Shown here in pieces: positions 17,656 to 49,300 of a stretch of DNA of 64,000 nucleotides. How positions within the stretch are numbered: the stretch's first letter is position 1; every line of letters starts with the position of its first letter. The position numbers were made by a program, and so were the translations under genes. The notes beneath the pieces are model-generated. The model was not told the DNA's origin. It worked only from the letters and a program-made list of their open reading frames with translations, and ran no database searches. The DNA is from Lingula anatina (Eukaryota > Animalia > Brachiopoda): positions 30,318,001 through 30,382,000 of the forward strand of contig CM120642.1 in assembly GCA_051362555.1 (NCBI GenBank). The letters run 5' to 3'.

Positions 17656-17710
<55 letters not shown>

Positions 17711-21358: not shown

Positions 21359-24300
21359 CTAATTCACAAACAGAGATTGGGTGAATTCAGCGTAATCATA
21401 GGCTTCCATGATCTCTCGCCCCTTCGGGTCTTGGTATTTTTTCATCCTTGATATGCAGTAATCTGCCTGTTCTTTTGTAAGGTTCTGGAAGAAAAATTGT
21501 ATAAGTTGAAATGAGATCCTACTGCCATAACTTGGACTTTCTAGAGACAACTACACTCAGCCTTTTAAACAAAATCGTTAATATTTCAATTTCTTTAATT
21601 TTTACCCATTAGTCGCTTAACTACTCTTTACACTTAATAAATTGTAGTCTTCAACATTTCTATTAAAAGTGCATGGCAATAACAATAGATTGTATTAAAA
21701 TGTTACATGAGTTTATATAAATACAACCATGTGCAATTTGGTTTCTGTCTATCACATGAGCATTCTCCCATGCATACTATCGATTACAGAGACCAATATT
21801 TGACGCAAATCTCTTCTGACATGTAACATTCATGCTGTAATTAAGTTAATACACATACAGTAAGTAAGTTAGCCTGCACTCAGACTAACAACACTGCCTG
21901 TATGCTACTGACCTGGTAAAGCTCTGAGGCAGTAATATAAGGTTTGTCCCCAGAGGTGAGGGCCCTGAAAGCCTCCTCCACATCTTTGCTGGACTGGACA
22001 TTCTCTGTCTCCCGACTGATCATAAACGCCATGTATTCTTGTAAGGACACGTAGCCATCCCTGCAATAGGAACACTGATTAGTACTACCATGTCTAGACT
22101 TCACAGTGTTTTGGGAAATGTACTTCTACTTTTATCATAAGAATAGTCCGTTTAACTCCTGATTATAACACATTATGCTTGTGTGGTTATTTCAATCCTG
22201 CAGTCCCTATTAAGTTAATTTCATAGTTATAACCAACTTTCATTATGACAGGAATAAAAATTAAATAGATGAAAAAAAAAAATCATTAAACTGTCAGGGT
22301 TGGGAATTGAGACTCCCACAATAAACCTGAGCATTGCACACATGGAGAGAATTTTGAAACTAAAGAAAATGTTCATCTGTGTGTTATCTGACCTGTTGGG
22401 GTCCACACTGTCCAGTATAGCTACAAACTCGGGGTCCACCTGTCCCTCCTCCACCATTGGCAGGTCATACCCCAGGGCACGCAGGCAGGACTTGAACTCA
22501 TGGTGGTCCAGCTTGCCACTCTTGTCTTTATCAAAATGTCTGTGGAAGAAAAATAATAAGGAAAGGTATATAACTTTGCCACTCGTCTTTTTCAAAATGT
22601 CTTGGGTGGAAGAAAAAAAAAAAGAAAAATAAAAGAATAAATAAAATGCTATGTTGAAAATAATCACTTCATATCTTTCACTTTATACTTTTACTTAGTA
22701 CAATGTACTCATTCACTACTTCAATACATCTACCCAGATTAAGACAGCTCATAGCTGTATGAAAATAAATCCACTCACTTGAACATCATACTGAATTCTC
22801 TGAGAGCATCCTCAGAGACACCACTCTGATTTCTGGCCTGGATCTGTTGTTCTAAGTTGTGTTGCATTCTCATCCCAAGCTGGTCCAGCTGATCCCACTG
22901 CTGTGCCAGACCCACTGTACTGTGCTCTGTATACCTGGAATACAAAACACACGCCACAGACAATTACAGAACACCTTCAAGAGTGCTATCAACCCTAGCT
23001 GAGGATAAAGATAATCTTTTTTTTTCTTCAAAAAATGGCGTCCTGAATTCAGTTGAAATTGTACATCACTTCTTTCGCAACTGAATAACTGTCCACCCTG
23101 AAAATTTTATCAAAATTCGTGGAGAACTTTTTAGGGATATCTTGTACACTAACAAACCAATGCATATCACAGCCATTTTGTAAATCTGTTTAGCTTAAAT
23201 TCCGTCTTTTTCATATATGCATCATAATCATAGAAATTCTTAAAAAGAATGAAATTTTAATTCTCCCCTATACCCCTGTATAATTAAATAAGTGGTGAAG
23301 AGAGCTGCTTTAGCATATGACTACAAAACTATGGCATTTTTAGCTCTATGATGGTGATAAAGGTATAGATGGAGCTTCTTCCTACCTGTTATCCAAGATG
23401 AGCCTCTCCTCCAGTGCAGCACCCAGGTCTTCTATTCTCTTCAGTTGTCCCTTCTGAGCTCTCACCTCTGCTGATTTTTTCTAGAATTAGACACGTGATT
23501 GGATTTGAAGTAAATCTAGTAAGGCTATTGTATACACCATCATATTACTTTGTAATATATATACTGATATCTGTATAATATGTATACCAGATTCACTACG
23601 TGCAATTACAATTAAAATAAAGTGTAACAAACATTATAGAAAATATTTTCAGAAAAACAAATCAAACAATTTCTTACAAAATTCCTTTACAGTCAAAAAA
23701 TGGAAATCAAGGCACATTTTACCCCACAATATAACCATCTTACCTTTGTAGCTTCAAGCTGGTCTTCCAAAGTTCCTGTGCCTTCCATCATAGCTTGCCT
23801 GAAACATGTTCAACAGACATGTCAGAACACTTCATCAGCAACAAACATTATGGCAGACACTCTTAGATTGGTTATACGAATACTTAAAGATTTTTTTTGT
23901 CTAAAATATATGTTTTAAAGTGTAAAACAATGACACCAAGTAACAGGTACTGCTTGATTTTAATATGATGTGAGATCACAATAGATTTTTTAAGGTAAAA
24001 TTCTATATGATGCTCTGATTTGGATAAGAATTATATTAATATTCATTTTTCTTCCTCATGTATCCATCAGTTGATTTAACATTTTTGGTTTGATTAAAAG
24101 AAAATCCTGGTAATGTTCACATAGAATAAAATCAAAATAAGAAGTCTAGCCCTTATTAATAATAATAAACTTAAAATATACTGCATCATACAATTTCACA
24201 TGTAAGTGATGAATCTTACAGCCACATGTGCATAACCATAACCATACCACAAAGAACAGAATTCATCATTTTTTACCATAACTATATATCACCTACAGCT

Positions 24301-27300
24301 TGCCACACATATAACATAAGTCCACATATACACCTTATTGTCACTGATGTTTTCAAATTACCAGGGAGATGGGATTACTTTAGGAGTTGATTCCCATGTA
24401 TTTTTCTCGTAATGGATGTGTCCCCCACGATCTCTATAGTCTTTCCTTATATCACCATAATAATTGAACACACTGTAAGTTCCTGTGGTTCATTAAACCA
24501 AGGTTTTTTGTATTCATCATCTCACACAACAGCAGCACTGTCCCATTTGATGCTCTAACACATTTCACACTCCTCACATCATTTTATGGGGACATAAGTA
24601 ACCCCATCACTGAGCATTTGTTTTTAAATTACACTACTTCAAAAGCTTTGATCTCCATCCCTTCTTCCACACAGATAAGAATCATACCCATAGCATTGAC
24701 TATATGCCTTTCCTTGTACTAAATTTTCAAGCAAACCCACACCCATAGTGTGCTGCATAAATATAAAGTCTGCTATTTCAGAACATAAAAATATATAACC
24801 CTTACAGAAATATATGCTTTTCTTTTAAGTCCACATAAAACACAACATAAACTTCAACTGCATTTAAATCTTATACTGGCATGCTAAGAACCAAGAGATA
24901 TTTACGGGTCTAGAAGCCACATCCTGGTCATCAGCAATGCAGGTAACAACATCGATGATGGAGGGAACAAGAAGTTTACATGTATTAGACAACATTTAAC
25001 AAGTAATAAAATGAAGGTTTATTAACAAAAGCAAATAAATAGATAAATAAATCTTGTTTGAAAGAACTAAAATAAAATTTCAAATTCTTCATAATTTTCT
25101 CTCTCAATTTCAATTTAAAAAACACTTGTGAAATTTCAAAAATATCCTATAACTCATTAATTTCCATTGCAACAAATGCATCATGAGAGGCAATGGTAAA
25201 AGCTCATCAGTCTCAACATGTGCCTACAAACAGGACTAATTCTTCTGCTAAACTGTAACTACCATGCTGAAGCAGGGAGCAAAATAGCCAGCTACTAACA
25301 AGGACTCGTCTCTTTACTAACCAGCCTGGGGACAATTAGCTTAAAAACCAAACAAGGATTTAGCCTACTAATAATGCAGGGAATCCTAATGCTACTGATA
25401 CTGCTGCTTGTTTTGTTTCTCTAACAAACATGACATTAACCATGCTTCAAAGACCTGAAGACTACCCCCGTTTTCCACAATACACCATCCAAATGTATTT
25501 CAGAAGCAAGGGGTTAATGGATGCTGGGTTTAGAAAAAGGTAGTGTTATTCTTTTTAACTCCTAGTTCACTAATAAAATTCAATGCACTAAAATTAGCCT
25601 GCAGAGATGACACTGAAGCTTAATAATTCAAGTACAGGCAATACTCAGAAAACAGGTCTTAAGTTCTACCATTTCTACCCCCCCCCTCCCCTCCCCGCCC
25701 ATTTCAGCCTCTTAGGGTCAAGCAAGGTTGGATAACTAGAATTTGGTCAGTAGGGGTGTGGTCAGCAATGCAGACAACTGACCAACTGTTGACTATAGTG
25801 ATACTTCACTATCGCTAGGATGTTAAACTTTTAGCAGCATGCCTCGAATTAAATACAAAGGTTTTGTATAACACTATTATCATTAGAATCATGTAACAAA
25901 CATACTGTTATTGTCACTCAGCTACAGCAATGAGATTCACATACACATTTTTTTCTCACACATAATCACTCTGCACTAATAAAAAACTCAAAAAACCTTT
26001 TGGCTTTAAGTATGACAGTCATACACATGTACATACATGTCCAGAGAATGCAAAAGCTGGATAAAAGTCAAGACCTTAACCCCATTTCAGTGGCTCTCTT
26101 TGCTACATGCATAACTCTCTAACTTCTTTCTGTGGCATATAAATACATGAAAACTGCATACACAGAATATGTACTTGAATGCATTCATATAACATGCACA
26201 GCTTGTCAATGTCACATGCTATTAGCAGGAACTTTCTAAAGTCAGTTTATCTTGTTTTATAGTTGGGAAGAGTAATATATGGGGCGTGGCATAACAATAA
26301 ACATAATTTAAGGCATGCAGCATTATCTGCATCAATTAAATATCAGATTGTTCATTTATCTTGACATTCCCAAAAGTAATATAGATTATTGAAACATGGC
26401 AACGTAAATTTTTTCCTCCAAAATTCTCATTACAATTACTCAAATAAGTTTTCAAGAAATAAAACATAATCTGAATCAACTGTTTAAAAATTTAGATCTT
26501 TTTTGGTCTAAACTTCTCAAGATTTAGGAACAAATCAAAACGTTGATGCCAGCAAAGGTACACTGAGCTGACACTAGAGGGCTCTGTTATCAATATACTC
26601 CACTGACCTTGTCTCTGTCAGCCACGAGTGGAAGGCGTTGGCCGCCTGTGCAAACTGTTTCCTCAGCACGTCGTTCTCTTCCTGGCGTTGTTGTTCACGA
26701 GCCAGTTCTGCATCACGCTCCTGGAAAACCCAAAAACTGAGTAAATATCTAGATAAGAAAACAAGAATAAATAGGTCATAGGTTAAAGATTTGTAATGCC
26801 TTGCTTTGCTTGAAACATTTTTGTTTGTAGTTGGAAGCATTTTCTCTAATCATCCTTAAGTAGCATATTGCTGAAGGTTTTTAAAGCACGAATCATACAA
26901 ATAATTTTCATACAGTTCATGAAATCTACTTTATCTCAAAAACCATACGACAGGTCTAACTGTTGAGAAAAAAATAAGCAAAATAGCACAAAACATGCAG
27001 AGGATCAGGGATCTCGCATGCACAGACACTAAATCAGTTCTATCTTGCCGATTACCTTGATGATCTTCTGCAGGTTCCTCCAGGTGTCATCCAGGTTCTC
27101 CATAGTAAACCATGTGTACGGATTGGGGCCCACATTGAAGCTCTTGATCTGCTTGTCCAGGGCGGCCAGCTGGTTGAAGTCTGCCTGGGCAGCACTGAGG
27201 GATGCCTTGAACTGGTCATGAGCCTCACGCAGGGCCTGGAAATGGGTGGGGAGAGGGGTGTCAAATATTTTCTTTAATATCATTTCATAACTACTATACT

Positions 27301-30300
27301 TTTTTTGACTTTATCATGACTTATTTCTAATACATCATGTGAACTTTGAATCACACTACCTTTGATCCTGATGATTAAAGCAAAACAGAAAACAATACCA
27401 TTCCCCCACAGCACTGTATCTTTCACATATAAATTTGATCAAAACGTAAAACCAGCTGGGTCTCTCTATACTACCTTGATCTCCTCCACAGAGTTACAGC
27501 GGACTGGGTCAGTCAGGTCTTCCTCTGCGTTCTCAAACCAGCTGTTGAAAGCAGATGCTTTCTTGGCAAAGGTGAGGTACAGGTCCTCCACCTGGCGGTA
27601 CTGCTCCTGGAGGCGGAGGAGACGCTGCTTGCGAGCCTCAGAGTCGGCCAGGAGCTTCTGCCATCTGGTGGTGAAATGAGAAGTTAATCAATTCAAGTTG
27701 ACACTTAGCACCATTTGTCAAATGACGGTTGATTCAAAATGACATCAAAATTTTTTTATCTGATCTTATTCCTTGTGTCTGTATATTTGATCAATCTTTC
27801 CAAAACACTATGTTATGAAAATAATGCCACATGAACCACTTCTTCTGTGAATTAATTAAAAGATGTGGTTCAAAAATTTAATGTAGAAACAAGATTTCAT
27901 CCACACATGAAGAAACTGGCAAAATTTTTTACAAACATTTCTCTCATAACTTTGTTCAAGGGAGGTGGGTCGATGAAATAAGTTGGGAAAAATGGACACA
28001 AAACTATATCTGTACACCTGAAAGTTTTTACTGTCTCAGATCAGCAATATCAGTATGTTATACACATTTCATACCTCTGAATGACATAATCATATCTCTT
28101 CTGAATGGCAGGGGTCTGGGCATGGTTAGCAGCCACCAGCTGGTCCTTCAGGGCAGTAATGGTCTGGATGCCTTCCTTCTCGAAAGCCTGGAGACCAGCG
28201 TCGAAAGTTTCCTGCTTGGTGAGGAGCGTCTGGACAGAGGAGAGGTCGCGGCCGTAATCCTCAGACTTCACCTGTGTCTCCTTGTCAGCTGCAATACAAG
28301 GTGGAGACATTATTTTATATTATGGCTATCAAGCATGAGGTTTTAGAAAAGTCAACAAATTAAACCCTCTAAGAAGAAATGATTTTAAAATTCTCCTAAA
28401 TAAATAAATGCAATGTACATGCTATATAGAACCAGTGAGCTCAATTGCTTGTGACATCTACTTTCTTCATATAACAGCAAAAATTTAGTATATTTCTAAG
28501 TCCCACACACATACACTACTCACACTACACACACATGCAACACACACAATACTTAAGCTACACACACTACCACACACATACGCACACAAAGACACCACTC
28601 ACCAATCCAGCTCTCCACCACATCGGTCTTCCAGATAAACTGAAGGAAGGCAGAGTTATCAATAAGCTTGGCCTTGCGGTGTTTGGCAGACTCTCCCAGG
28701 TCCTCCATCTTGTTCATCAGGGCCTGGCAGCGTGAGGCAATGTGGTCTGCATTGTGATTGCCCTGGGAAACATAATAGTGAATATATATACTGAAATATT
28801 TTAGAATAACTACGGTCTAAACTTCAAATCCTCTACATGAAAGCTGTTGTTCATAATGTACATTGATTGTTATGAAATTGAGATTATTTATAAAGCATGA
28901 CTTAGCAAATAAGAAATGAACTTGTAGCAAGAATGACGGGCATCTTTAAGTTAAAAAAAAATTCATGTAAGCAAAAAATATATACTCTTCATGCTTAGGA
29001 ACCAGCAAGATTACTTGTGTAAATATTTGCGTAAACAGAACAAAATACAAAATGACAGCCAATTTTTTCATCCAAGAGAGCAATCTTTTCCTTCAGACAT
29101 TTCCTAACCTCATCAATCAGCTTATCTCCGTTGGTCTTAATCTCAGTACAGCGATCCTGGTGAACTCTGAGGTCAGTCTCAAAGGCGTCATGTTTCTTCA
29201 GCAGCCCCTGTACAGCAGCCAGGGTGTCCCCGTAGTCCTCCCCAGACAGCAGGTGCTGCTTCTCATTAATCCAGGCCTCTTCCTCCTCAATGTTAGCACT
29301 GAACTGCTGGTACGCCAGGGACTCCTCCAGCTTCTGGCCCCTGGAGGTAAATAATGTGGAGTTTGATTTCATTCAGTGAATGAATGGTTTATTATATGAG
29401 GTCTCTGTTATAAGTCAGTACTGAAATGCTTCAATAATCATTCTGACTCCCAAGTTTCATAGTGTTTAAAATTCATTTATCAATAATTTTGGAAATAATA
29501 TTTGTCTACACAAAGTGATTATGAAAACCTGAGATGAACATTTATCAATTTCTTTCACAATGCAAGGGTTCTTATCAATTATATTCCTTAACTGGTATTT
29601 CAAACTAAAACTTTTCAAACAAATCAGATTTCCCCTGCGCAACTGCAGTATAATTAACATATCCCAACCACACAGCACCATGAAGCAGTACCTGTTAGAT
29701 GCCATCTGCTTCAGTTCCTCCCAGTTCTCATTGAGTTGCTGCAGTCTGTTGGCAATCTCCTCACTGCCTATCTGGGTCTCTGTCATCAGTTTCTCTGCTG
29801 TCTCCTGGACAGCCTGCAAGTCAATAGGGATTAGGTTAAAATGGAAGATTTTGAATCTAAACAAACTATGTGTTATAATATTAAGATAAAACAGGAATGT
29901 TGAAATATTCTGTTTGAGTGGTGGATGAGATAACAGCCTATTGTTATTGTGCTTAAAAATCTGATTGAAAATTGCCCACATCATGGCAATGTTAGGATTA
30001 TAACATGCCCAAGGATGTGACTTTCATATGGAAAGACTTAGGATATTTTCTAACTTAATCAATTCATTTTATGAAGATTGTGTGTCATATGCCTAACTGG
30101 ATCAAATATACCCTCAGTAAACATATCACTGTACCTGTATAGCAGGTTCATGACTGGCAAGTTCAGCCTCCAGTCTCTTGTGTTTCTTTCTCAAGTTCTG
30201 AACACCTGTCAAATCACGGCCGTAGTCATCAGATCCCACCAACAACTTCTTCTCTCTAGAAAATTTAGATCACATATCATTATTTGTAAAAAGAAAAAAA

Positions 30301-33300
30301 ATCATATTAATTTTCAATTTCCTCATGAAACTGCTTCATTCTTGAACATGAAAAACATAGATAAACACTGCAGATACACATAAAATTACGAAGAAAAATT
30401 AAAAGTAAATTAACTCCACATCAATGGGATTCCTTCATTGCTGTAAACTATATTCACTTCACAATAAGCCATCTAAATACCTTAGTTTCAAACCATATAA
30501 CAGACAGTGTACATACTTGATCCAAGCCTCCTCATCATCAATATCTCTGAAGAACTGGTGGAGAGTGTTGGCTTCCTCCAGCTTGGTGCGGCGGTCCTTG
30601 GACAGCTCCTTGATCCTGGAAAATTATCAGTCAGTATAAATGATCCTTAATTCTGACCAGCACAAAGCTCTACAAAGACACTAGAAATACACTTGCACGG
30701 GTACATTTTCAAAGGCAGAGAAGATTACTAAGCCTTTCTGCCATATGTATGTATGTATGTATGCTTTTTCCGTATTGGTAATCTGTTCTCAAACAGATTG
30801 CAAAAATTGAAACAAACCAGTCCACAAAGTTAAAATGTGCACACTAACAATAGGTACACCTGCACTGCTTACAATACACTGGGCACACCACTGTCTTTAC
30901 TTACTTCTCATATCTCTCATTGATAGAGTTCTTCTTCTCTCTGATGGACTCTGGGTCCCAGCCACCTCCCTCTATGAACTGGTCAGCCTGGTTGTTCATG
31001 TCCTTGATACGGTCCTGGGGGAGGAGGAAGAGAAAATTGGTTGTCTTGGTAAATATTCAAAAGAATAAGGAGCATATACATGTGCCAGGGATTAGATTTA
31101 TTTTATGGCAAGACTGTGATAATTATGTACGTAGACCAAGGAAGTTGAAATTTGTTAATATTGTGGTTACAATAAAAGAGACAGCAGAACTAAAAAGTTT
31201 TGACAATGCAAAAGGTCATAAGCAAATTGGTCCTAGTCATTAAAAAAATAAAACAAAAAACTTCTTGTAGAAAAAGTTCAAATCTGAGCCAATTTTTATC
31301 TAGGTTCTATGTTGTCTTTTAGGTTGTGTCAACTAAAGGGATAAAACTGATGTCTCCAGGTCTGTGTACTTACATCATGTGCAGTGATATCAGCATCCAG
31401 GAGCTGGTGTTTCTTCAGCAGGTTTTGCACAGAAGCCAAGTCCTTTCCATATTCCTGTGACTGCAGCAACTGCTCTACCTGGAACACAACACATAAAAAA
31501 TTGGCTACAAATCAGCAAGGACTTCTTGTGTAAAAAAAAACTTAAATGCATTTACAACTTTTGAAAGCAATTTTGACTGTTTATAATCATTACTTCAAGC
31601 GTACAGGATTATAACTATAGTGTTCACTAACAAAGTCCGTCAAAATTGGTGCGAAATTATAAATGAAAACCCCCTTTACATTAAAGAATTTCTCATAGGC
31701 AAAAGAAAATGAAGGGAGGAAAAAAAAAAGACTAATAGGTCCAAAATTTTCTATTTTCCCAGCTTTACCAGGCGGCCCTTACCTCTCCCAGCCAGAACTC
31801 AATGTCCTTGACAGCAGCATTGAACTGTTGCTGTTTACTGGCCTCCTTCAGCTTGACACTCTTCTCTGTAGTCTTCACCACCAAATACTCCCACTGCTCA
31901 GCCAGGTTAGCTATCCTCTTCCTCACAGCCTCCTCCTGGCCTTGGCATTTCCCCTCGTCTATCAGGTCTGGAAAAGTGGGAAAAAATCCCAGATTATTAC
32001 ATGCAGCATATGCAGTGACTGATAGGACTTCTCCTCAGTCAAAAGCAGGGCTTGTACTCATATGCAGGGCTAAGGACAATAATTTAGTTTGGCTGAAATA
32101 TGTGATCATTTTTGCAAATTATTATTCTGTTTTGTGAATTTATGCAGCATCCATTTGAATTAAATTAGTAATTTTGAGGTGAATTAGTCTTATATGCAAT
32201 TGGTATAAAATCTATGATTAACCAAAGCTATATAACATAGGTTCGGAATATGAAAGAGAGAATGGAAAATTTCAGAAACATTTATCTGTGTAATGCTTTG
32301 TGTTTAAAATTATGTATAGCTTCCAGTCTTTTAAAATTGCAATATTCAAAAGATCAACCCTGTCCACCTCTCCCTATATATTACATGGAATGTGAACCTG
32401 AAATTGGACCACATCTGCAGACTACACGAAGTCCAGGAGTTTCATATCACAGACATCACTGTTCTGTAGTACAATCTATGCTCTGTCTGGTCATCTGCAT
32501 GCTTGAACCAGCATCATTTAAGTTGTCACTTTAAAGACATAATAAAGGGGATGGTGCCTAGAACTAAGAAATTTCCCCACACTTTTGCATACAGTAACAC
32601 ACACATCACTACTGTAGAATCAGAACATGGAATTCACAATAATGACCAAACTTTGGTATAATATGGAGGCACACTAATACACTTCCTCAAACCTAGCTAA
32701 TGCTCCATGAGAGGAACACACACAACCATTCCATTAAATCATCCCCAAGATATTAAATAGTAAGCACTAACAAAACCCTAATTTCTATAGTCAATAGTTA
32801 GTATATAGACAACTAGAAGATGGGTTAATTCAGGTCCAAACAAATGAATCAGTGCTCCCCTTTTTATGTCCTGCAATTCTGTATCCACTGAAATTTTCTC
32901 TGGATCTGAAACCAAATGCAAAGTAAGGCACTTAGGCCACTCTTTGCAACCCAGCCCTTATTTGACAGCATGTTCATATTATTCAAGGTTAGTCCCAGCT
33001 GCCATTCAGTCCACACAGTGTACCATGCCATGGCCGATATTAAACCAATTATCAACCTTGACCTTGACATATATATATTTATATTGAGCAACCTTGACCC
33101 AGCTTTTACCTTGCTCAACAATCTTCCCACTTGGGTTAAAAGAAGGCACATTTTCAGCTTGTATAATAGGTCGTCTGTTAGAAAAAGCTTTCCACAGACA
33201 ATGCTGCAACAGACATGCACAACATATCTTCAAAGGAGGGTTCTTATAAAAGTATCCTTGGAAACCAGCTTTTAAACTCTAAAATACATAGATTCTGACA

Positions 33301-33308
33301 AGAAACAA

Positions 33309-33353
<45 letters not shown>

Positions 33354-36300
33354 CTGGATGTGTTGGGAGACAGAGGCAGTGAAATTGTCAAATAACTATT
33401 TCTAACACCCTGAAATCTAACTGCAAAATTCACAGATCTCAATCATGCACCTATCAACTACTGCTCTCTCTAAGAATAATGTTGCAGGGGTTTCTGTGGT
33501 AGCCTTGTGAGTTGCACATTTCTGGAATAAGATAAATTCAACCTCATATCATTTTGTGATGTAGGTACAGTGGTGATCAAGTGTGAATGTTGGCTGGTGT
33601 GAAGGACATAGTGGATTTAATGAAGGTTGTGGTGGGGATGAGTGAAGGTCATATGGAGATCAAATGGAGGCCATGTTGGGGTCATGTGAAGGTCATTAAG
33701 GTCAAGTGAAGGTCGCACTGGAACTAACTGGAACCAAATCATTGTCATATGCAGCAATGTACAAGATGCAGAACTGAACACCACTCCAAGCAGGCAGTTT
33801 GACCACCAGTCCCAGTGGTCAGTCAATGCAATACTGGACACTTACCGCCTTCTTCCACCAACTCTACAATATCATACACAGAGCAATCACTAATGTGAAT
33901 TATAGAACAGAAAAAAAAAAGAATATTTCAATTACACAAAAATAAAAATTAGTTATTTGAAAAAAAAAAAAAAAAAAAAAAATTCTTGAGCAGCTTATTG
34001 TTTCTGCACTGGGATCAACCCTAATTTTCTAACTCTTTACAACTAACAAATTCATTTAAATCAGAAGAAATATGGGAAAAAAGGACCAAAGTATTGGTCA
34101 AGAAAAAAGAATCTATCAAATGAGAATGGAAAACATGTACACATTTATCAAGTGGTCACTTACTCTGTCCAGCAGCAATTGTAGCCTGCAGACGATCAGT
34201 GTTAGCTGCCAACTCAGCCTCAAAGGCCTGGTGTTTTTGGTGCTTGGCCTGTACATTAGCTGGGTCCTTGTACGACTCATCTGATGCTAGCGCCACCTTT
34301 TCTGTGATCCAGACCTCCATCTCATCAGCATCACGACAGAACTGCTGCAGGGTTTGTGCCTCGCCCAACTTGGAACGATTCTCAATCAGAGCACTCTTCA
34401 AGTTGGCCCATCTAAAAAGTAAGGAGACATTTTTGTATGATGAAAGTGTATCCTAAAGCATCCCACAGCAACTTCAAATATTCTTTGTGACAGAGTTCAA
34501 TTTGTATAGTGGACCTTTACTTAGTCACTGAGTTATCTTTTAACACAGGCTTAATCATTTCATTTTTTCAAATGACGAATTTGCTTTGTTTTAAATTTCA
34601 AATCCATCTTCTCATCACCTGTCCAGTACTTCTGCCTTCTTCTCTTCAATGGAGTCTTTATCATAGTGGTCAGCATTCACCAGCTGCTCTGAGAACTGCT
34701 CCAGACTGGCAATCTTCTCCTCCTGAAATGTAGCAGACGACACATGTGAACTCCATGAAACACACTATCTGGAACCCATAGATAAGGTATATTCAACAGT
34801 AAAGTGAATATCCAATGTAAAGGTCTGAAGATCCTGTTTCTTAATTCACAATATAAATCTACACAGTGAGCACTTCTTGATGTATGTTAACTGCGAAAGA
34901 TACTAAGTTCCAAAGAGTAAAGGATATTGTGAGTCCTCTAATTTTACAGAATTGAATTTTTAAAAGGATAAAAAAATATGACATCATTACTTACAAAACC
35001 CAAGCTTAATTATGCTTCTCATATATGCTAAATATTTCTTTAGTCATTGAGAAAAAAATTCATCAATCCCAAACTTTTGCTTCAAATTTAGTTATGACCA
35101 TGATGGACTCAGAGGCCACACACATGCAGTTTAAATAAATCAAATGTCTAAAGACATGTCTGGCTACAGGACACCCTGCTCCCATGGTGATTTGACAACA
35201 AGGTATCTTAATGCCATGGCGATCTGACAACAAGATAATCTGCCCTTTCCTTATACTGAGAAGTGCCATTTTATTTTTGTCAATATGGCACAGAAATGGC
35301 GACTCCAATTTCAGGTCAGCAGTCAATGACAGCAACTGAGCATCAGACAATAAACTGCTTTAATGGGCAAATTTAGTAATTAAAACAAGTTAATCACTCA
35401 AAATGAAAAAAGACATGCAGCCACAACAACATCAATTTACTGCAAGCTGAAAATTTGACCTGAGAGTTTCAAAAGGAGACAATTTTATTAAAAATCAGTT
35501 GAAATGCTCTGCTTTCATAAAACTGCAGCAAATGTACTGTCATGCACTGGAATATTCTTTTATCTACGCAGCAGGACTGAGGTCTCTGTTCAGAAAAGCT
35601 GAACTGGATAACCACTTACCACCATCTGAATAAACTGAAGGTCCTGAAGCTGAAACTGTTTTATCTTGCAAATCAATACCAACTCTACCAGTAGGACAAT
35701 GCACAATATAACAAAGGTGAAGATTGTTAAAATTCACCGTCAGAAAGTGGGAAGAACATAACTGTGGTGATTCTAGTAGCATATCAAACATGTGAGCAAG
35801 AGAAAGGGTGATTTATGCCAGTTGTATTACAAAGTTTAGAATAAGTATAAGAAGAACAAATTAAAAACTCATAAAATACACAGGCACAGTGCAAAGAACT
35901 AAAATTCTTTACAACAGATTAAAAGAGGGTGAAAGTATATAGCAGTAAAAGGAGGGTGTAGAAGCAACATTTCACGTGACAAAGTTAGTGGTCAGTGCAT
36001 TGGTCTGGCCATCATTACCTGAGCACTGACAGCTCTGTCAAAATCTTCATGCTTCTTGATCAAGGATTCCACGGAGTCTGGGGCACCATCAGTGGAGTCT
36101 CCCCCTAAGAATGCTTCCCTAGCTGCCATCCAATTCTCAGCCTGTTCACAGTCACGCAGGAATAGCTGCAACTCCAAACACTGGTCTAGCTTCATGCGTC
36201 TGGCAATCCATGCTCTGGACAAAAAAGTGAGCGGATATTTTTCTTTTGGAACATATTCTAGTAGATGCAGACTTCTCCACAAAATATACATAACTTATTA

Positions 36301-39300
36301 TGATAACGTACGTATACATAACATTTTTTTCCATATATACAAATTTAAGGAAACTTCCACATCTTTCCTCTCCCTAGTTTTTGCCACAGGTTTTTCTTAC
36401 TTCTCCAGTTTCTCCCTGGCTTTGGCCAGCTCATTGAGTTTGTCCTGGACGTCGTCGGAGGCAAAGTGATGTGCCTGCAGGAGCTGGTAACCAAACACTT
36501 CAAACGCCTGGAAGGTGCCAGCACGTGCATCGATTTCAGTGCGATGCTCCTGAAATGCAAATACAGAACAAGCATATCAAAATATGCACAGCCTTTTCAG
36601 AAAATATTTGCCTTAACAATGTTCTTCATCTAACAAGGTATCACTGAAAAGTTTTCCTGGCAAGTTTTGAAATGCTAAAACATTTACAGGAAGTTGTCCC
36701 ATGATCTCTTGACATCAAGGTCAAGGACACCAAGGTCATTGCTGAAGGTCATCAGTCATGAAAGGGTCACAATTCCTGGAATAAAAAATAAATCCAATGC
36801 ATCTCATACACCCTATGTTTTTTGAATGATTAGTGCAAAAAGTGACCCATTATTTGAAAAAATAGTACAGAAGAAAAATGAGAATGGTGCAGACTATCTT
36901 ACTTAGAAAGAACAGAACATCAGTGCTGTTACAAAATCTACTTCAATAGAGTAAGAACTGCTACACTTTTTACAAAGAAAAACTGTACAATGTAGTTTCA
37001 AAAGACACCATGTAACCGAATCTTAATCTCACCTAGTGCCAATTAAGTTTTAATTTGGTTTTTCCTTAATAAAACCATGTACTTGGTATTAATTCATCAT
37101 GCACTATTCTATTCTACAAATCATGCGTAATCTACATGAACATGCTGAATAGCTATCCAACAGACTGACTTGAGTTAAATCAAAATTTAAGTCATATGAA
37201 TATGTGGTGCAATTTTCAGCTACATCTACCTGTATTCTCTACCACATAAGAGCTCTTTCTCTCTCATTTACTGAACTGCTGATCATGCTTTTCTAACATC
37301 ACTTGGCAGTTTCTAAGAATATTTTAACTTCACCAAGATGCAGTTGTGCTCATCTCAATCCAATTTTTTTGCAAAATATAAACAGTTTCATACCAACATA
37401 GACAGTATCAATGTTAAATCATTATCATCACAAAAAGAAGTTTCAGCACATTTTACAAATGCATACCTCATTTTAAAAACAGCTCAGCAAAAAAAAAAAA
37501 ACATGGAATGAAAACTATACGAAATGTCAAACCTGTCACAAATAAGACACTTTGGCTATATAAACCAGTCAGAGAGCTGCATGATCAACAGTCTCATGGT
37601 CATGCTAAGAAGTATCAGTCAGATCACAGAAGGGATATTACTGGCAACCCCACAAAAATAACTGCTAATTTAAACAGCAAGGATTGAAATATTCAATTTT
37701 TTTTTTCAAAATAACCAGGTCAAAATTTTATCTAATGAGCTGAAGTAGTTTACATCAAATCATCTTTCATAATATTCGGACTGAAGATCAAAATACAAAA
37801 GAAAAAAAAGGTAGCCACCAATATCCCAACATTTCTTGATCAAATGATACAAAAACAACATGTACTCAGTAGGTAACCTAATGCTTTACAAACGCCCAGA
37901 TCTGGAAAAAGTCAAACCATGCGATTAGAAAGAGAAATAGAGAGAGAGACAGAGAGAAAAAAAAGACAATAACAACGTTATACAAAGGAGCATCCTAGAG
38001 TTCATCCTACCAGACAAGGTCAAGGTCACATTCCAGCATAACAGACCTACAACGCTGTAAGAAACATGCTGTTATTAGCTTCCCCTGTGTAGACAGGGTG
38101 AGACAAAGAACTGTGCGGCCTGCCGCGGACATGTTGGGGACAGTCTGTAAAGTGAACATGCCTTATTGTCCTCAATGTGATTTCTCTATCTACAAGTGGA
38201 TGCTTATATGCTGTAGGCGCCACAGAGAAAGTGAAATAGTTCCAACTTGTCTTATCAGTAACAACTTTTTGGTAGATGTTTAAATTCACTGCAAAATTGC
38301 CATTTCAACAATTAAAGACCAAATTGATCTGACAGACACAGTCATACATGGAAGACAGTTTCAGAATGTCTTACAATGCGCAACCTCTTATGGCAAATAC
38401 AGCTACATGAGCAAGCACAAAAAACTACATAAATATATTGTATATATAAACTGGCTAGTTGATATGTATAACATCTCAGCAGCACATCACTCCATTCCCA
38501 GCATGCCCTAGAATCATGGCTGACCTCATCCTCTGCCTCCTCCTCTGCGTTCTCTAAAACTTGGTAGGGGACATAGCGACTGGCAATGTCAGTGTGAAGG
38601 TTCTGAAATGTTGATAGCATTTTCGTTTCACCACAGGGAGAAAAGACAAAATTACTTCCACCAATTGTAAGAGAAAATCAAATTTTTATTTTTTCCTGAA
38701 AAAGAGGGCGATGAAATATATATCTATATAGATGCATAGCATATATATTTGAAACCTTGCTTCCTCAATTTTTTCCACACAAAATCCCAATACATGGCAT
38801 CTTATATAAAAAGTCTGCACATCATTTCCCAAGCTGCCTGAAGGCACATTCCTTCTACTTGTGTAAACTGTGCTCCTTTCTTATAACCTTACATACACAA
38901 AACCCATCAGTCTTCAGAGACCACAGTTAAATGACAACCAATCCAGCTCATTTCCCTTGTGCTCAGTCTCAAGTCCATAGCATCACTCTTTATATCTGGG
39001 CACTACCTTCTAAGCAATACTAGACACCATATAATGGAAAGCCACACATTCACTCAAACCTTGACCTTCTCTTACCTGGTGTCGTTCCAGCAAAGCCTCG
39101 GCTCCCGTGACGTCCTTGGCCAGCTCATCAGAGGAAACCAGAGCCTGCATGCTGTTAATCCAGGAGGTCAGGTCACGATAGTCACTCAGGAAACGCTGGT
39201 AGTCGTAAGAATCCAGAAGCTTGGCCTTACGGGCATTGGCCTGAGGAAGAAGATACATGTTCATTTATATTAGAATTTATAAACACACAATATTTGGATA

Positions 39301-42300
39301 AATTTTTATGTAGTTTAATGAGTGTCTAATTTCACCTCTTTAGTCCATCAAGATAATGGATGGACACAATACAAATAATATGCATTTAGAAAGCGCCATT
39401 TAATAATTGTATTGTATATAACATCCAATCAACCATAAACAATAAAACCTTCACATAACACTGAACCAAACAAATACTGGTGATATAACATCTCATCTAT
39501 TTTAAACAACAAAACTTTTACATATTACTGAATTCAGCATAAATACAAGTGTAAATAAATGTACCTTCTCTGTCAAAGAGTTCCACATCTCATTTATCTC
39601 AGCCTGGTGAGCCTTTACACTGTCTGAGACATCAGGGTGCGTTTCCACCAAGCGGCCTGCGGTCTCGTCCAACTGCTGGACTTTCTCGCCCAGTGCAGCC
39701 AGGTCACGCTCCACACCCTCATGTTTGCGCTGAAGTCTCTGCACACTGGCAAGATCACTGCCGTAATCGTCCGTGTTCAGGGCCTGGTCTTTCTCATCGA
39801 TCCATTCTTTAGTTTCATCAACATCCCTGTAAATCAAAATTTACTTGAGTTGCGGAAAGAAAGAGAGAAAGTTGCCCTGTCAGAAATGAGCAGGCATAAG
39901 TCAGGTTGCTTTTGTCCTTAGCTCAATCACAAACAATTTGTAATTTTTACAAGCAAAACTTAAATTTCTGAACCATAGGACCACAACAGGTTCCATTACC
40001 CTGCACCAGAATACAAATCTTTGTCATGTAAGTCAACTAGGTATACTATAATATGATGGTGTCCAAGTTGTTACCTATGATATCTCTGTACTTCATGTGA
40101 GCTGGCCAAGGTCTTAGCCTTGTCCTGAGCCGTGTTCTGCAACCTCTCCCATCTCCTGTTCAACTCCTCTATCTGGATCCTAATTTTAGCAGCAGCCTCG
40201 GTCTGTCCCATACGCGTGAGATTATCGGCAATTTGGTTAAGTTCGACCAGACGCTCTTCATGAGCTTTTAGATCTTTCTGGAAGTCATCAAACTTCTTCT
40301 GTTGCACCTCTACTTGTTCAAGATCAGCTTGTTCTGGAATGATTGCCTCTTCCACAACTGCATTCTCCTGATAAATTAAGAATATAAATTATGTGTCTGT
40401 TTGACAGCAAGAATGTAAGAGCTTCCATAATCCTGAGTATTTTAAATTATTGCAAGATTATTTAATAAAAATGAAACTGGTTGTACAAAATATTATAATA
40501 TTTTATTTTACTTTTAATATTTTCATTTGTTCATTTGAAAAAAACTTTCATGGGTAACAATGAAATTGCTTTGTTGAAGAAAGGAGGGATGTTGAGGGCT
40601 ACAGAAATGCATAGCAAATGCATGTAAAAAAATAATAAAATGAAAATCAGGTAAAAAACTTTGATAAAGTTCAAGCAATATCCTTTACAGACCTATTTCA
40701 ATCAAGCTTTTGTCTGATAATCTTTCAATACTCTTATGATTCAATTATGATTTCAAGCAATAGGCAAGCTGATACTTTGAAATTGTGGAAAAAATACAGT
40801 GGTAATGGTATTATGATAATATTTTCATGCAAAAACATTGTTCTTCATGATTGCTTAACACATTTTACAAATCAGTAAGTCCACGAGTTCTAAATTTCAA
40901 AGTAAAATGGGATGCCAAAGCTGTAAGACTGATGGAAATTATGATCAACTTTCAATCCAAAAGAGAGATAATCTGAGTATTATAATTTCCTGAAAACAAC
41001 ATAAGCTAAGGCAAAAGGATAATAGAGCTCACAGAAATATGTAGGGTAAGGTGTTATAATTATCTACAAGGGTTTATAAAAATATCTATACACAGGGTAC
41101 CCACTTCAAATGTGTTTGCCTACCAAAATGCAAGAAAAAAAAGTGTCATAATTTTCATATTCTTTAATTAAAAATAATTTCATCTCCTGAATTCAAAATT
41201 ATGAATTAAATTTTGAGAAACTCATTAAGAAACATGTATCCAACAAAGAAGCTTCTTCAAACTTGAAAATAAAAGTAAAATAAATATAATATAATATAAC
41301 AAAATGAACAGAAAACTTTGAAAGTGTTAAGGCCTCTTAAAAATACTACTTCACATCTCAAAATTGAGCTCACAATAGACCCAAGCAACCAAGATTTACG
41401 AGAAGTAAAACAGAAGCTCTAAGACACCAAGTGGTCAGTTTACCTTCTCAATCATCCACTGCCCCAGTTCTCCAGCCTCCCTGACCAGCTTGTAGGCCTG
41501 GCACGACTCGGACAACTTGTCACGCCTCTGCTGGGCCAGATCTATCAGGGCCTCATACCTGCAGAAAACACGGTCTTATTAGATACGAACTTGTTAATAT
41601 TAGCATAAGTGATGTTAATGTTAACTACTATAATGTATGAGGTGAAAGTATCAAACTGACACTCAAATTATGATCCAAATTTAATTGAGAATGCCCTGTA
41701 TTGGTTTTAATCTCAATATTTTTTAAAGATTACATATTCTTTCATAAAATTAACAAATAACAAATCTCTTATAAAATTAATTAACAACAAAACTTTTTAG
41801 CATATGAAATAAATATCTATTTTAAACAAAATCTGCCTTCTATTTTTCTGCCTTTATCATACTGATGGCTAAGTGGCAAAGCTAGGCAGTGTGAGAGTAT
41901 GTACACACATGTGAAATCTCTAACTTACTGATCCTCAATCTGCCTCTGCCTGATGGACACCGTGAAGTCTCTGGCCAGATTGTCCTGGCTAGCAGTCAGT
42001 GGCTGGTCAACTTTCTTTACATAGGCAGCAGGTACAAAGCCCTGGCGGTCATTCACCTCTACTTTCCACCAATCTTTATTGGAGCTATTCAGCAGTGTGA
42101 GAACGTCCCCCTTCTTCATGGAGACTTCTCTGGGGCTCTTCTCTGTGTAGTCGTACAGGGCAACCACGCACTCCTTGCCAAAGTCATCAATTACTGGGGC
42201 CTCTTGCTGGCGACATGCTTTAGCCTGGTACTGAAGGTTATCTATGTTGGTCTTGTAGGCTTCCAGATCAGCCATGAGAGCCTCGTGTTTTTTCAATAAG

Positions 42301-43997
42301 GCCTGAAAATAATGAGTTCATATCAATGTAAATTACACACACATACCCACACACACATAGTTTTTATCTTGTCTTTGTCTTCAATCTAATACCAAAACTA
42401 CTTTTGATTTAAAATTCTTTGTAAAAAAGATGCTGCAAGTTAATCTCAAAAACTCTCCTTGCAGTCTTTTTATTCATGAGTCATTTCTTACCTCTGCAGA
42501 GTCCTCATCCTTGCCGTAGTCAGTACTGCTCACAATGGGGACCTTCTCCTTCATCCAAGACTCGGCCTCATTGGCATCAGCAAAGTACTGCTGTGCCTCC
42601 AGGGAGTCCTCCAAGTCCTGCTTCCTCTGGAACGCTTTCTCCTAAAAAGGTGTATATAAAACTTTGTGTTCTTGGGATTGCAAATGGGAAAGTTATCCAA
42701 TAATCAAATTTTAAATTGTCATTGCAAACAACCATATAAGACTGTTGAGAGCATGTACAAGAGCAATGAGCATTGTATTGATTAAAGACTTCATAGTTTT
42801 GTAAAAAAGAATTCCTGAAACAGATACCAAAGAATATGAAGTTATATATTTTCATTTCTAGTTTATCACTGGACTAAAATGATACAAAGACCACTAAAAT
42901 ATAGCCTACTTTCAAGTTGTTCCACTTCTCCTGCAGTCCCGCAATTCTCTGCTGTATTTCATCAGAGGCAAAGTGGTTCTCGTTGATCATCTCCTGGCCC
43001 TGCTCACACACGCAGCCAATCCTTGGCTCATGGCCTCCCAGCTCAGCCAGCAATGCCTGGTGTTTCTTCATCAGGTTCTGTACACCTATCAGATCACGGC
43101 CTGGGACCAGAGAAAAACTACCATGTGAAAATCTCAATGCCATTGTGTTTGTTACAATTATTACTTTGTTGTTTGGATTTATATGTTATTTTATTTTGGG
43201 ATCTCTCTATAATTGTCAATGTAGGTAAATGGACACTTTCCACTTAACCACTAATAGAATGCCAGGAAACACTCAAATTCCTTATAGTAACAGTTGACAT
43301 ATATTGCCTGAAGTAACATATGGGCAGTAACAAGAATCTCCTGGTACATATTGCCATTGCCATCCGATTCAACACTGGCATAATAATTTATAAAATAAGC
43401 AAGCTAATATTAATCAACTTTATCCAACTTTGAACTCTGCCAAACAAGAATTTTTGTTGTTCAAATAAGCAATTATTTTTTTCTTCTAATGCCCTCATTT
43501 CACTGACATCCCAAACAATCATCTCTATCTCCTATAGTTGAGTTATAATTTACCTCTGTTAGTGGATGCGGCTATGGGCTCTTTCTCCCTGATCCAGTCC
43601 TCTTCATCTTCTATGTCCCTGATAAACTGCTGCAGTTGGAGAGCATCTATCAGCTTCTGCTTACGAGCATTCATTGGCTCCTGTTGAGAGAAAGGTGTGG
43701 GGACTTATTATTATTATTCCTTGGGAGAAGTTGTAAAAACTAAAATCTGCAATTTCTAATTGCATTTAAACCATGTGGAAAAAAAGGAGACTGAAAACCC
43801 TGAAACCAGGCATAACCCTGAGCACTTTCACCCACATTATTCCTACCTGTAAAGCATTGTATCTCTCCACCATGGCATCCTTCTTGGCCACAATGTTATC
43901 AGCATCAAAATGACCATTGTCCACAAACTCATCTGCCTGCTGAGAGATGCTGTCAACACGGTCCTGATGGAAGATAGGAAAAGATTGAAAATAATGT

Positions 43998-44035
<38 letters not shown>

Positions 44036-46337
44036 GAAAAAGACTTTAAATTGAAGAAATCTCTATTCCTGCAGAAGCTGAATAACAATCATAAGAATGT
44101 TTTTCATTCAATCTGACTGTTACTTTATGAGACATTATAAGCAAAAACCTCTATCAAAATAATCATTACCATTAGATACAATCAATACAACTTACCTGAT
44201 GTGCAGCAACATCTGCCTCCAAAAGGGCATGTTTCTTCTGAAGGTTTTGGACACTGGTCAAATCCTGCAAACAAGATAAAAAATTAATCTTACTTACTGG
44301 ACATTTAATGTTACAGATTTGCATTATAAACAAACACCATGGCAAATCTTGACTTGTACAAGTGTCTAGCCATATCATTATCTTTACAGCTGTCTTGCTG
44401 TTTTTCCTACTCTACTTCTTTTAGAATCTACTAATTTTTCTAAAAACCAATTTTTACAATTGGATAAATTCTTCACCAGAAAAATTCTACACCTATTGTA
44501 CCTAAGAAAAAATTTACTGGTTGAAATTTGTCAGAAATCTGAAAGAAACTAGAACTCAAATGATACTACACATTATGAGAAAATTCACCAGTAAAAATAT
44601 TCAGTTTATATATCAAGATGCTTTGCCTTTTATATAATGAAGAGATACCTGAAGAACATGCTACAAATAAGCTTTAACAAACTTGCAAGTTACAAGATCT
44701 AGATAAGATACAAATATTAAAATTAAGAATCATGGGCATGATCAGTTGTTTTGCATTATGGCACAGCACAGAAAACATGTACACATTGTAGGATGCTGAA
44801 GGAAGATTGTTATTTACACATGATTTTAAGACAAAAATGTGTGTTACAGATGTCTGACCAGGTCAACGATGTGATATGGCTTAAACTGGCAATAATTTTG
44901 GGAAAATATTCACAGTGTAAAAGACTCAATGGAGGTAAAAGGAAAGAGGATTTGTAAGACAGACTGATATTGGGAAGTAATGTGTGTATATAAATGAAAT
45001 ATCTCAATTTTTTATTTACAATTATCAAGTTTTTTTTTTTTAGGTAGAAGGGGGCAGTGGGTCTTAAAACATAGTCTGTAACTCAAGTTAACATATATAA
45101 GTTAACATATATCCAATGTAGTATAAATCTATATAAAATATATATATTGAGATGCAAATATGAGACAGCAAGCTGTGAGTACACATATCTTTATAAAAGT
45201 AATCATTCCCTATAAAGAGTCAAACAACTGTTAAAGAATCAACAAATAAAGCCTAGTAATATCATCATTTCCCTAAAATATGACACTAATTCAAAATCCA
45301 ACTTTGTGGCAATCCTCATAAAAGTGTAATAAAATACTGTCCCATGTGTACTTATACAAAATGGCTAAATAAATCAATAAAATCAAGATAGTAAGGCAGG
45401 CAATGGCTAATATCTGCAAGCCCCTTCCCCACTGAAAGCTCTGAGATGGCAGACAAAAAGCTTACAATAGTTTTAAGCAACATAATCCTGTCTGAAATTT
45501 GCAGTCATTCATTGTTATCACTGGATACTTTATATTATTATTTCATTTTTATTTTAGATTAAAATTCAATGTTTTATGTTTATTACTTTAAATTAATAAA
45601 GCTATCAATTTTCATTTCTTTTTGGTCTTATATCCACAAAAATTCTTTCAAGTTCTTTATTCAGCAATTTCGGAAACACCTGAACATATCATTTTTATAC
45701 AAACTCATTATCATTTTCATGTAACCCAAGTTTTGCATCTATAATCATTGCAACAGTACATAACATGGAACTTTGTACTAAACAAAAATACTCAATCAAC
45801 CAATGCCAAGTCCTAAAATAGTTTTCATAATTCTAAAAGAAAAGTGCTTGACCTAAATAATAAATAAATCTGCACTAAGTTCCCCCAAAGCAATCAAAAT
45901 CATAAAATATAATTATGAAATCTTCTATTTCATGTACATATTCTCCCCAATCATGATGATATGCACAAAAGCATGCAACCTATATCTGTCTAATCTTGAC
46001 ATCTTTGTTCAAGAATGACTAAAGAATGGCAAGGTACATAAGGAATTACGTCTCATGATGACAATACAAACACAATCCAGGTAAAAAGAAAAACAAGGCA
46101 CAGGAAGCATTTGATTATATTGCAGTGACAAGGAACAGGGGAGAAAGAAATTACAGCAACACTTGGACATACTGATCAGTGGTAGTTCTGCTGGATTGTA
46201 AAATATGTACATCATAAAAACCATTGTAAAGGTACAATGGGAATCTGAATTTTTTATCTTATGAAAGAGAGCTCCCTCCACCCATGAAAATTTTTCTTAC
46301 AGTCAAAATGTATGGGAAATTTTTGAATTGAAATTAC

Positions 46338-46392
<55 letters not shown>

Positions 46393-49300
46393 TTTGATCT
46401 ATATTAACATGAAAACAGGGGTCAAAATAATTACTAAATAATTTGCATTTAATTTGTAGGATTCACATTCACCCCATTTCAAAATTACCCACTGAATATG
46501 TCATTAGCAAGAGTTGCTGCATTTCTCCAGGGTTGCATATGTACTGAGCAATTGAAAGAAACTGTAAAGAGAACTCACTCCCTTGGTGATAATCTGTGGG
46601 AATGAAAGAAAGAGAAAAGAGATTAGAATCCTAGAGAATGTTATTTTGTTTAGTGTTCTTCACAGATCATTCTTTGTTTTTTTTTAATTAGTCTTTCTTG
46701 CATAATTTTTGAAGAACAAGAATAAATAACTCGGAATTTTTTAGATTTTGGTGGTGCTTTCTTTATTTATTGATTTATTTATTAAAGTGAGCTGCCTTGG
46801 AGGATGGCTGAACTCTCCACTGCTTTCCTAGTTTTAAATTTAGTTTCCAAAAAGCTACTTTTACTATACAAAGCAGAATGTAGTACGTAATAAAAGACAT
46901 TAAATGCTCTTGCTGAGGAGCTTTAGTCACCTTTGAAAAACAAAGATGCAAAAAATGAATTTCATCAAGGTGAACATTAACATGTGTGTAAATTTACTGC
47001 CACTGAGAAGAACACCTTTATATTCAATTGAAAACTTCTTTAAATAAAGAAAAAAGAGAAAGACGGAGTAGGGGACATGGGATTAAATCATACTCAACCA
47101 CATTCAAAAAACAAAATTAACAAATCTTAATTACATGTAAACTGGGATATTTTTCAAAATAAAGGTAAATATATAACATTTAGCTGGAGATTTCTTTCTT
47201 CCATAACTTAAAGCTATGTCAACAAGTAAAACTTAAACTGGATTGATGCATGAATATAAAAAAAAGTTTTACAGTCACAGTTCAAGACAAACTTAGGGTC
47301 AACAGGTGCATACCTTCCCAAAATCCTCTGACATCAGGAAGTTCTCAATCTCAGTCAGCCAGAGCTCGACATCTTCCACATTCCTGTTGTAAGCTTGCTG
47401 CTCACTAGCTTCATTCAAGCGGCCACCTTTAGTCAAAGCAATTAACACAATGTATGAAGCTTCTTCACACAGAAGTACTACTTACATTTCATCCATTTTT
47501 TTAGATGTTTGATACAATGAACTAAAAATGTTTGCTCATTTGGTTAAAGATAAACTCTTCTTCAGGTGCATATTAGAGCAACTGAATAAGCAATATTTCA
47601 GAAGAAAAAAATGAATAACCTTTCCAACTCGCTTAAATCAAATCAATCTCGTTTAATTCTGTGTGTAAATACAACTGATTTCACTAAGACCTACTCTTTT
47701 TCTCTGTCTGTTCATTCAGCTGTTGCCACAACTCCTGGATTTCCTCCAGTCTCTCTCTGGTAATGTCAGAGGCAAAGTGATTGGAGTCAATCAGGTCCTG
47801 GCCCTGTTTGTTGACAGCTTCAATACGACTTTGGTTGGCTGCAAGCTCTTGCTCAAAGTTTTGGTGTTTCTGGACTTTATTTTGCAAATTTGTGGGGTCC
47901 TGAAACAAAATATTCAGAAAAGTAAGTGATAAATTTCCAAATGGTGATGCTTTGCATTTAAAACTAACTGCTTATTTGCTTCATTTACAACTTTCATATG
48001 ACTAAATGCTAACAGTACAGAACAATGTACCTAGTAAAATAGCACATTTGACACACTAGTGCTAATGAACTTTGTACACAAAAGGAGCCAGCTCTCTGGT
48101 GTGCAGTGCAATTCCTTTAATTATATTACTTGACACTAAACGGACACTAACCAGGTGAAGAGCTGATAATCATATAAAAAATTGTTGCACACAGCATTCT
48201 TCTTAAACTGCTGAAATGGTTACACTACAGAAACCTTACCAAGTAGCTTTCATCTGATGCTGTCTTAAGTTTTTCGTTGATCCAGCTTTTGGTCTCGTCA
48301 CAGTCTCTTTCAAAGACTTGGAATCTAAGGGAATCTTCTAACATGCGGCGTCTTGCACCAGATCTCTCATACAGTGCATTTCTTCTCTGGAGGAGCTACT
48401 CAGAGGAATTAATTTGACATTTAACATTCTTTTAATCAATCCTTCACAGATTTCTGCAGTATGTTCCATCTTATCTTAATTTAGAAATTGACAATAGACA
48501 AAAAGGCTTTCAGTTAATCATTTAATATATCTTCGTTATTCAGACTTTTTTTATCTACTAAAACTAAACAAACCACTATGCCAACTTACTGCATCTCTCC
48601 TGGCTGCAACATCATCAGCAGCATAGTGCTCATTCTCAATGAGCTTGGTCGCAAATTCATCGAGAGCCTGAAATAACAGACAGGATTGATACTGAATATA
48701 ACAAAACACCCCTTGGCACTTACAGCGTGATTATTTCATGTCAGACTGGCTCATCAAAGAATTATCAAAGGATTACATGAAGTCCAATAAAGGGGATACT
48801 CACATGGATTTTTTCCTCTTGAGCTGCAAGAGATTTCTCAAAATCTTCATGTTTCTTGATAAGGGCTTCTACACTGTCCAGGGAGTCTCCAAGATCCTCG
48901 TTCTGTAAGAATGCCTGGAAACACAAATACAGTGGAAGGGGTTAAACATTAAAACCATGACCCCATCTCTTTTCAGTTTTTAAAGATCGAGCCAATACAT
49001 CCTTTCTTGACTCAGTGATAAAAAAACATTCAGAAAATGCAACATTTAGGATCTTTGTTAATTCAGAGGTTGTTAAAACTGAATCAATATAAAACATGAT
49101 ATAACGACATTTTATTCCTATTACTAGGTGATCTCACCTCCTGTTTGCTCATCCATGCATCAGCCTGCTCTGTGTCTCTGTAGAACAACTGTAAATCCAT
49201 GCACTGTTCATAAAGAATACGACGCTCTTCCCATAGTTCCAACAGAGTTGTCTTTTCATTGGCTAGCTGGACCAGCTGAGGAATACAAAGAAAAACAAGG

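Follow-up and report, generated by a model that had tools for sequence, protein, structure and literature searches.

The alpha-spectrin locus

The window analysed here, a stretch of 64,000 nucleotides (nt) from the brachiopod Lingula anatina (assembly GCA_051362555.1, contig CM120642.1, positions 30,318,001 to 30,382,000), carries on its reverse strand an alpha-spectrin gene with four short, in-frame cassette exons, each located in one of the gene's five longest coding introns. The gene model was obtained by mapping homologous proteins onto the window and placing splice sites by hand, and its protein of 2418 amino acids (aa) is identical to isoform X10 in a comparison with the RefSeq proteins of L. 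anatina. A first-pass annotation, made from the sequence alone, had singled out these five introns as the longest of the coding region, and all of their coordinates are exact in the 46-exon model; the sixth-longest of the 45 coding introns measures 1076 nt, and the remaining 39 span 136–453 nt. Helix placements of the cassette peptides in the following list are presumed ones, based on the general architecture of spectrin repeats.

21359..52740 (−), alpha-spectrin coding region, 46 constitutive exons, 2418 aa, intact frame
47313-44265 (−), long intron, 3049 nt, phase 0
46579..46593 (−), 15-nt cassette microexon, IITKG, in intron 47313-44265; A-B loop of repeat 7
39075-36550 (−), long intron, 2526 nt, phase 0
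38525..38602 (−), 78-nt cassette exon, 26 aa with an acidic tail, in intron 39075-36550; helix B of repeat 13
36018-34723 (−), long intron, 1296 nt, phase 0
34163-31968 (−), long intron, 2196 nt, phase 1
33846..33863 (−), 18-nt cassette microexon, KLVEEG, in intron 34163-31968; end of helix B of repeat 15
26607-23799 (−), long intron, 2809 nt, phase 2
24906..24923 (−), 18-nt cassette microexon, MWLLDP, in intron 26607-23799; end of helix A of repeat 21

Repeats are counted from the helix-A tryptophan, with SH3 as domain 10 (PMC6521328).

Sample-dependent use of four cassette exons

The RNA evidence comes from six of nine runs with the same species label, 6–30% of each run having been read, and reads were mapped to positions 23600-39300 and 34630-47420 of the window. 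For the 15-nt exon, including and skipping reads numbered 0/12 in run X1, 69/3 in X4, 5/31 in X6 and 43/28 in X9 (the last without three partial reads), so that inclusion is unequal among runs (chi-square p=3e-19); X4 and X6, which belong to one study, differ with p=2e-18. The repeat-21 exon was joined to both flanking exons in 163 reads of X4, 45 of X7 and 42 of X8, with none in X1 among the junctions listed, and 16 reads of X1 instead run straight into the upstream exon. Both exons are thus alternatively spliced cassettes, as their included and skipped forms occur in the reads. The repeat-15 exon was likewise found between its flanking exons (58 reads in X4, 34 in X7, 31 in X8, none in X1 among the junctions listed), and its skipped form is known from RefSeq. 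Skipping of the 78-nt exon was represented by 13, 62, 37 and 29 reads, and read depth was present in its bin in five of the six runs, at roughly 0, 4, 14, 24, 24 and 40% of the flanking depth, values that are rough upper bounds because intronic reads were counted and flanking depth was estimated by eye. In X4, the 15-nt exon was included at 96% and the 78-nt exon at roughly 4% (by depth); the cassettes are therefore not governed by one switch and follow at least two regulatory patterns.

In annotation, the RefSeq Lingula cluster comprises nine proteins (X1-X10), and the four inserts are their sole differences from the all-skip model, with the 15-nt exon present in 6/9, the 78-nt exon in 5/9, the repeat-15 exon in 4/9 and the repeat-21 exon in 6/9. 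Several expectations of the first-pass annotation can be judged on this basis. Its idea that long introns mark regulated in-frame cassettes holds well, as four of the five contain one; its prediction of short exons in every long intron is borne out for these four and fails for intron 36018-34723, in which none was found. Junction reads, which it had proposed as a check, exist for the 15-nt exon and both 18-nt exons, the 78-nt exon is seen through depth, and no including reads are listed for intron 36018-34723. The cassettes had been thought to escape gene predictors, and all four are already in RefSeq; instead of six to seven cassettes yielding dozens of isoforms, we found four, with no second cassette in any intron, allowing at most 16 combinations, nine of which are annotated.

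We additionally observed more intronic depth in intron 26607-23799 than in the other long introns (up to 4.4 in X4, in gene sense), which is perhaps due to slow splicing at a weak donor of the repeat-21 microexon.

Chance expectation and the intron without a cassette

The prediction of hidden exons had started from AG...GT segments, at least one of which was noted in each long intron. When defined as 3–99 nt with AG before, GT after, a length divisible by three and no stop in the phase of the intron, such segments numbered 105, 107, 69, 85 and 115 in the five long introns, compared with 100, 122, 54, 99 and 131 in dinucleotide shuffles (100 each), and at least one was present in 39/39 short introns. 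Since they are as frequent as in shuffled sequence, the observation as worded is no evidence for cassettes. A splice-site score trained on the gene's own 45 splice sites ranked the real 15-nt, 78-nt, repeat-15 and repeat-21 exons 1, 1, 1 and 3 in their respective introns. Intron 36018-34723, the one without a found cassette, was alone in having a best-scoring candidate that exceeded the shuffles (p=0.03 uncorrected, six introns tested).

This candidate, 24 nt at 35620..35643 (−), is relevant to the suggestion that the programme is larger than four exons and that further cassettes are used rarely, in scarce cells. It has the best splice-site score of all candidates, three downstream TGCATG motifs and an upstream TGC, and lies in a long intron for which a fraction of each run was read; scarce neurons in bulk tissue may make a rare exon here compatible with the read counts. 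These counts nevertheless comprise 398 skipping reads and no inclusion among the junctions listed for the six runs, the table of between-exon insertions being complete for positions 34630-47420, with zero depth in the candidate's bin in the deepest run. The candidate is absent from RefSeq, 0/243 homologues have an insert of at least 3 aa at this site, and its AG-free zone is only 4 nt. We therefore rejected it for want of read, RefSeq or homologue support, and regard additional rare cassettes as improbable.

Three other candidates were likewise discarded: those of 21 nt (44538-44518) and 72 nt (46930-46859) showed a bin depth of 0-0.4 and no read or annotation support, and one of 15 nt (41119-41105) in the sixth-longest intron did not appear in the complete table of between-exon insertions. 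This sixth-longest intron (41443-40368, 1076 nt), which the first-pass annotation had not considered, contained no cassette in four runs; in Lineus, a 25-aa optional insert is found at that position.

Motifs in the cassette introns

RBFOX proteins bind (U)GCAUG and activate exon inclusion from downstream sites. Among eight motifs tested for enrichment, GCATG occurred 24 times in the four cassette introns versus 11.2 expected (a count reached in 0/300 shuffles) and 10 times on the antisense strand, its density being 2.3 per kb compared with 0.9 per kb in short introns. For the 15-nt, 78-nt and repeat-15 exons, 16/16 copies lie downstream; the repeat-21 exon has seven upstream and one at +22. 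The longer TGCATG, noted in the first-pass annotation further downstream of several segments, was found 8 times versus 5.4 expected (p=0.18). TCTT/CTCT was enriched as well, partly owing to simple repeats, and MBNL, QKI, NOVA, CELF and ESRP motifs showed no enrichment in the cassette introns. Independently of these motifs, we noted a degenerate 11-nt tandem repeat at 33617-33720, just downstream of the repeat-15 microexon, and similar TGACC-rich text near 36720-36760.

The mechanism originally put forward was a neural microexon programme run by an SRRM protein with an eMIC domain through upstream UGC. In this respect, TGC at −30 to −4 of the acceptor was present in 3/4 cassettes and in 4/45 constitutive acceptors (p=0.007 in a Fisher test on small numbers), the 15-nt exon being the one that lacks it. 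Three of the four cassettes (15, 18 and 18 nt) are frame-preserving and within the length of eMIC microexons (at most 27 nt), the fourth being 78 nt. A long AG-free zone, a CT-rich tract, a branch motif and UGC near the acceptor are features of eMIC targets according to PMC8797185, and these occur patchily in the sequences of our four cassettes: AG-free zones measure 35, 50, 24 and 127 nt versus a median of 33, the longest belonging to the repeat-21 exon; CTRAY motifs were found in 2/4 cassettes, including the repeat-21 exon, versus 14/45 constitutive sites; and the 15-nt exon has a CT-rich tract and a branch motif. Furthermore, a 15-nt exon of human SPTAN1 is responsive to SRRM4 (PMC7935315). 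The SRRM4-responsive vertebrate exon is, however, the 15-nt LSKLL exon (zebrafish, mouse), at a site without an intron in Lingula; the 15-nt Lingula exon is without TGC; and inclusion of the four exons is not coordinated. Neuron-only use of the 15-nt exon also fits poorly with its 96% inclusion in bulk RNA, a level hard to reach from neurons alone unless the sample was nerve. An eMIC-driven neural programme is therefore a doubtful explanation for the cassettes as a set.

Conservation across phyla

Homologues were compared at the protein level only, in sets that are redundant in isoforms; the starting sequence of one search carried an insert, which biases its counts. Inserts of at least 3 aa were found in 65/277 non-Lingula proteins at the repeat-7 site (the named ones being from molluscs, 5-7 aa), in 92/245 at the repeat-13 site (molluscs, arthropods), in 2/236 at the repeat-15 site (both Lineus) and in 137/224 at the repeat-21 site. 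The repeat-21 insert follows the same arginine and reads x-[WY]-L-L-D-[GP] in eel, hagfish, amphioxus, centipedes/myriapods, chelicerates, molluscs and the annelid Owenia, with an 8-aa version in insects. In hagfish, six insects, several molluscs, Owenia and Lingula, its included and skipped forms are both annotated for the same species (at annotation level outside Lingula), and all four combinations of the repeat-21 and repeat-13 exons are annotated in the six insect species; the included repeat-21 form dominates among spiders, ticks and scorpions. Given the same position, a similar peptide and alternative use in both lineages, the repeat-21 microexon is likely the counterpart of vertebrate TYLLDG. 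In these protein comparisons, the repeat-13 exon is protostome-wide.

Such conservation bears on a further explanation, namely that the exons are real, that inclusion differs because of stage or genotype, and that the animals tolerate the inserts without deriving a function from them. The runs do differ by many single-nucleotide polymorphisms (SNPs), the repeat-15 exon is nearly lineage-specific, and deletion of a different sptan1 microexon in zebrafish had only mild effects, as reported in PMC12626420. The inserts of repeats 21 and 13, in contrast, keep their sequence and both of their forms across phyla, which implies selection, and we consider this explanation quite unlikely.

Three further observations concern related sites. 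The bivalve repeat-13 exon has an upstream extension ending in LQ, probably through an alternative acceptor. Two different repeat-7 inserts occur in freshwater snails, and a longer form is present in venerid clams. At the precise site of the vertebrate LSKLL microexon (window 34411-34164, model residue 1538), where Lingula is without an intron, Octopus carries an optional insert of 12 aa; the exon there could be ancient or could have been gained repeatedly.

Beyond alpha-spectrin, we take the neighbouring genes, recognized by eye from open reading frames at 1857-18998 and 56703-58271, to be an MFS-like transporter (+), an ankyrin-repeat gene (+), an NRF6-like acyltransferase (−) and a TREX-like exonuclease (+), the last arranged head to head with spectrin.

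Origin and predicted consequences of the inserts

Two of the cassettes resemble the start of the exon that follows them: the 78-nt exon matches its own next exon at 16/30 nt and the repeat-15 exon at 10/18 nt, in each case the best of 45 exon starts. Arthropod repeat-13 inserts are near copies of the next-exon head at the protein level. The repeat-21 peptide shares a like pattern with its next-exon head in protein (hydrophobic pair, acid, glycine), with a DNA match of only 5/18; that this exon was also born by duplication would be a guess. The 78-nt and repeat-15 exons may thus have arisen by duplication of the next exon's acceptor and first codons. Upon inclusion, the duplicated copy would complete the helix and the original residues would be pushed into the loop. 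This could alter a binding surface or how flexible the rod is locally; the site in repeat 21 is beside the EF hands, where the insert would tune the end of the rod. In the AlphaFold model with the repeat-21 insert (P0121), helix A continues through the first four residues of the insert and the next ten form a low-confidence loop, within a repeat whose secondary structure is broken in the model.

Taken together, it is established that four in-frame exons exist at this locus, that their inclusion depends on the sample, that they are present in RefSeq and that other phyla have inserts at the same sites. We consider it fairly probable that the four cassettes (15, 78, 18 and 18 nt) are switched on by tissue-restricted activators, most likely of RBFOX type, with possible help from an eMIC protein, so as to yield spectrin rods that differ slightly from one another. 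Skipping would be the default, owing to weak splice sites of the exons themselves, GCATG elements would recruit the activator, and the samples with high inclusion may have been muscle-rich rather than purely neural. Several points weigh against this interpretation. The runs carry a species label only and come from separate individuals that differ by many SNPs, to which genotype or stage effects may be added. In the reads, the 78-nt exon is represented by depth, with no inclusion junction among those listed, and the skip junctions of both 18-nt exons are likewise absent among those listed. The longer TGCATG shows no enrichment, and GCATG is one of eight motifs tested. As for structure, AlphaFold models of homologous C-terminal halves, one carrying the repeat-21 insert (P0121) and one lacking it (P0153), both have a broken secondary structure in repeat 21, and the role of any insert is a prediction.

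Comparison with known systems

The four cassettes are ordinary in kind. RefSeq spectrin alpha chain-like X1-X10 (XP_013412651-4, XP_023929926-31) represent the same gene with the same four cassettes in 9/16 combinations; these entries differ from the present data in being annotation, without inclusion levels, regulation or ancestry, and combinations of distant exons are known at annotation level. Public annotation already covers the cassettes and vertebrates are known to have spectrin microexons, so the present result does not amount to discovering hidden exons, and the remaining interest lies in the deep ancestry of the repeat-21 and repeat-13 exons. The literature searched, with subscription papers and VastDB outside its scope, contained no description of invertebrate alpha-spectrin cassettes or of the ancestry of the repeat-21 exon, and PMC11911433 and PMC2115353 held nothing relevant to these cassettes.

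Vertebrate SPTAN1 (alphaII-spectrin) similarly has several small in-frame inserts, with three alternative splicing events described in PMC3249148, and the 6-aa TYLLDG of eel and hagfish occupies the position of Lingula MWLLDP, both forms being present in hagfish. Unlike Lingula, vertebrates have a 20-aa insert after SH3 (PMC6521328) and the LSKLL microexon, both without a Lingula counterpart; conversely, none of the few vertebrate proteins compared carried the repeat-7, repeat-13 or repeat-15 cassette. The sptan1 microexon removed in the zebrafish deletion screen is LSKLL, according to PMC12626420, and is thus different from the repeat-21 exon. Compared with neural microexons dependent on eMIC/SRRM3-4, as characterized in PMC8797185, the Lingula cassettes are alike in being short and frame-preserving, with UGC near the acceptor in 3/4 and a long AG-free zone in one, and unlike in being known from bulk reads, with very high inclusion there and one cassette of 78 nt.

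A parallel in age is provided by the neural microexons of APBB1/2/3 and MADD, the only two neural exons that a 20-species survey names as bilaterian-ancestral in its main text (bioRxiv 10.64898/2026.09.05.749416). Like these, the repeat-21 exon is a tiny in-frame exon that is alternative in deuterostomes and protostomes; SPTAN1/spectrin is absent from the main text of that study, and its supplements may list the exon. We tentatively suggest that the repeat-21 exon could be a third regulated microexon of bilaterian ancestry and that, together with the repeat-13 exon, such duplicates of next-exon heads might act as helix-register switches in muscle or neuron spectrin rods from brachiopods to humans, a possibility that we rate as somewhat short of even. 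Being alternative in a deuterostome, in ecdysozoans and in spiralians, the repeat-21 exon would, if its regulation is conserved, offer a target in fish, insects and molluscs for the role of six residues beside the EF hands.

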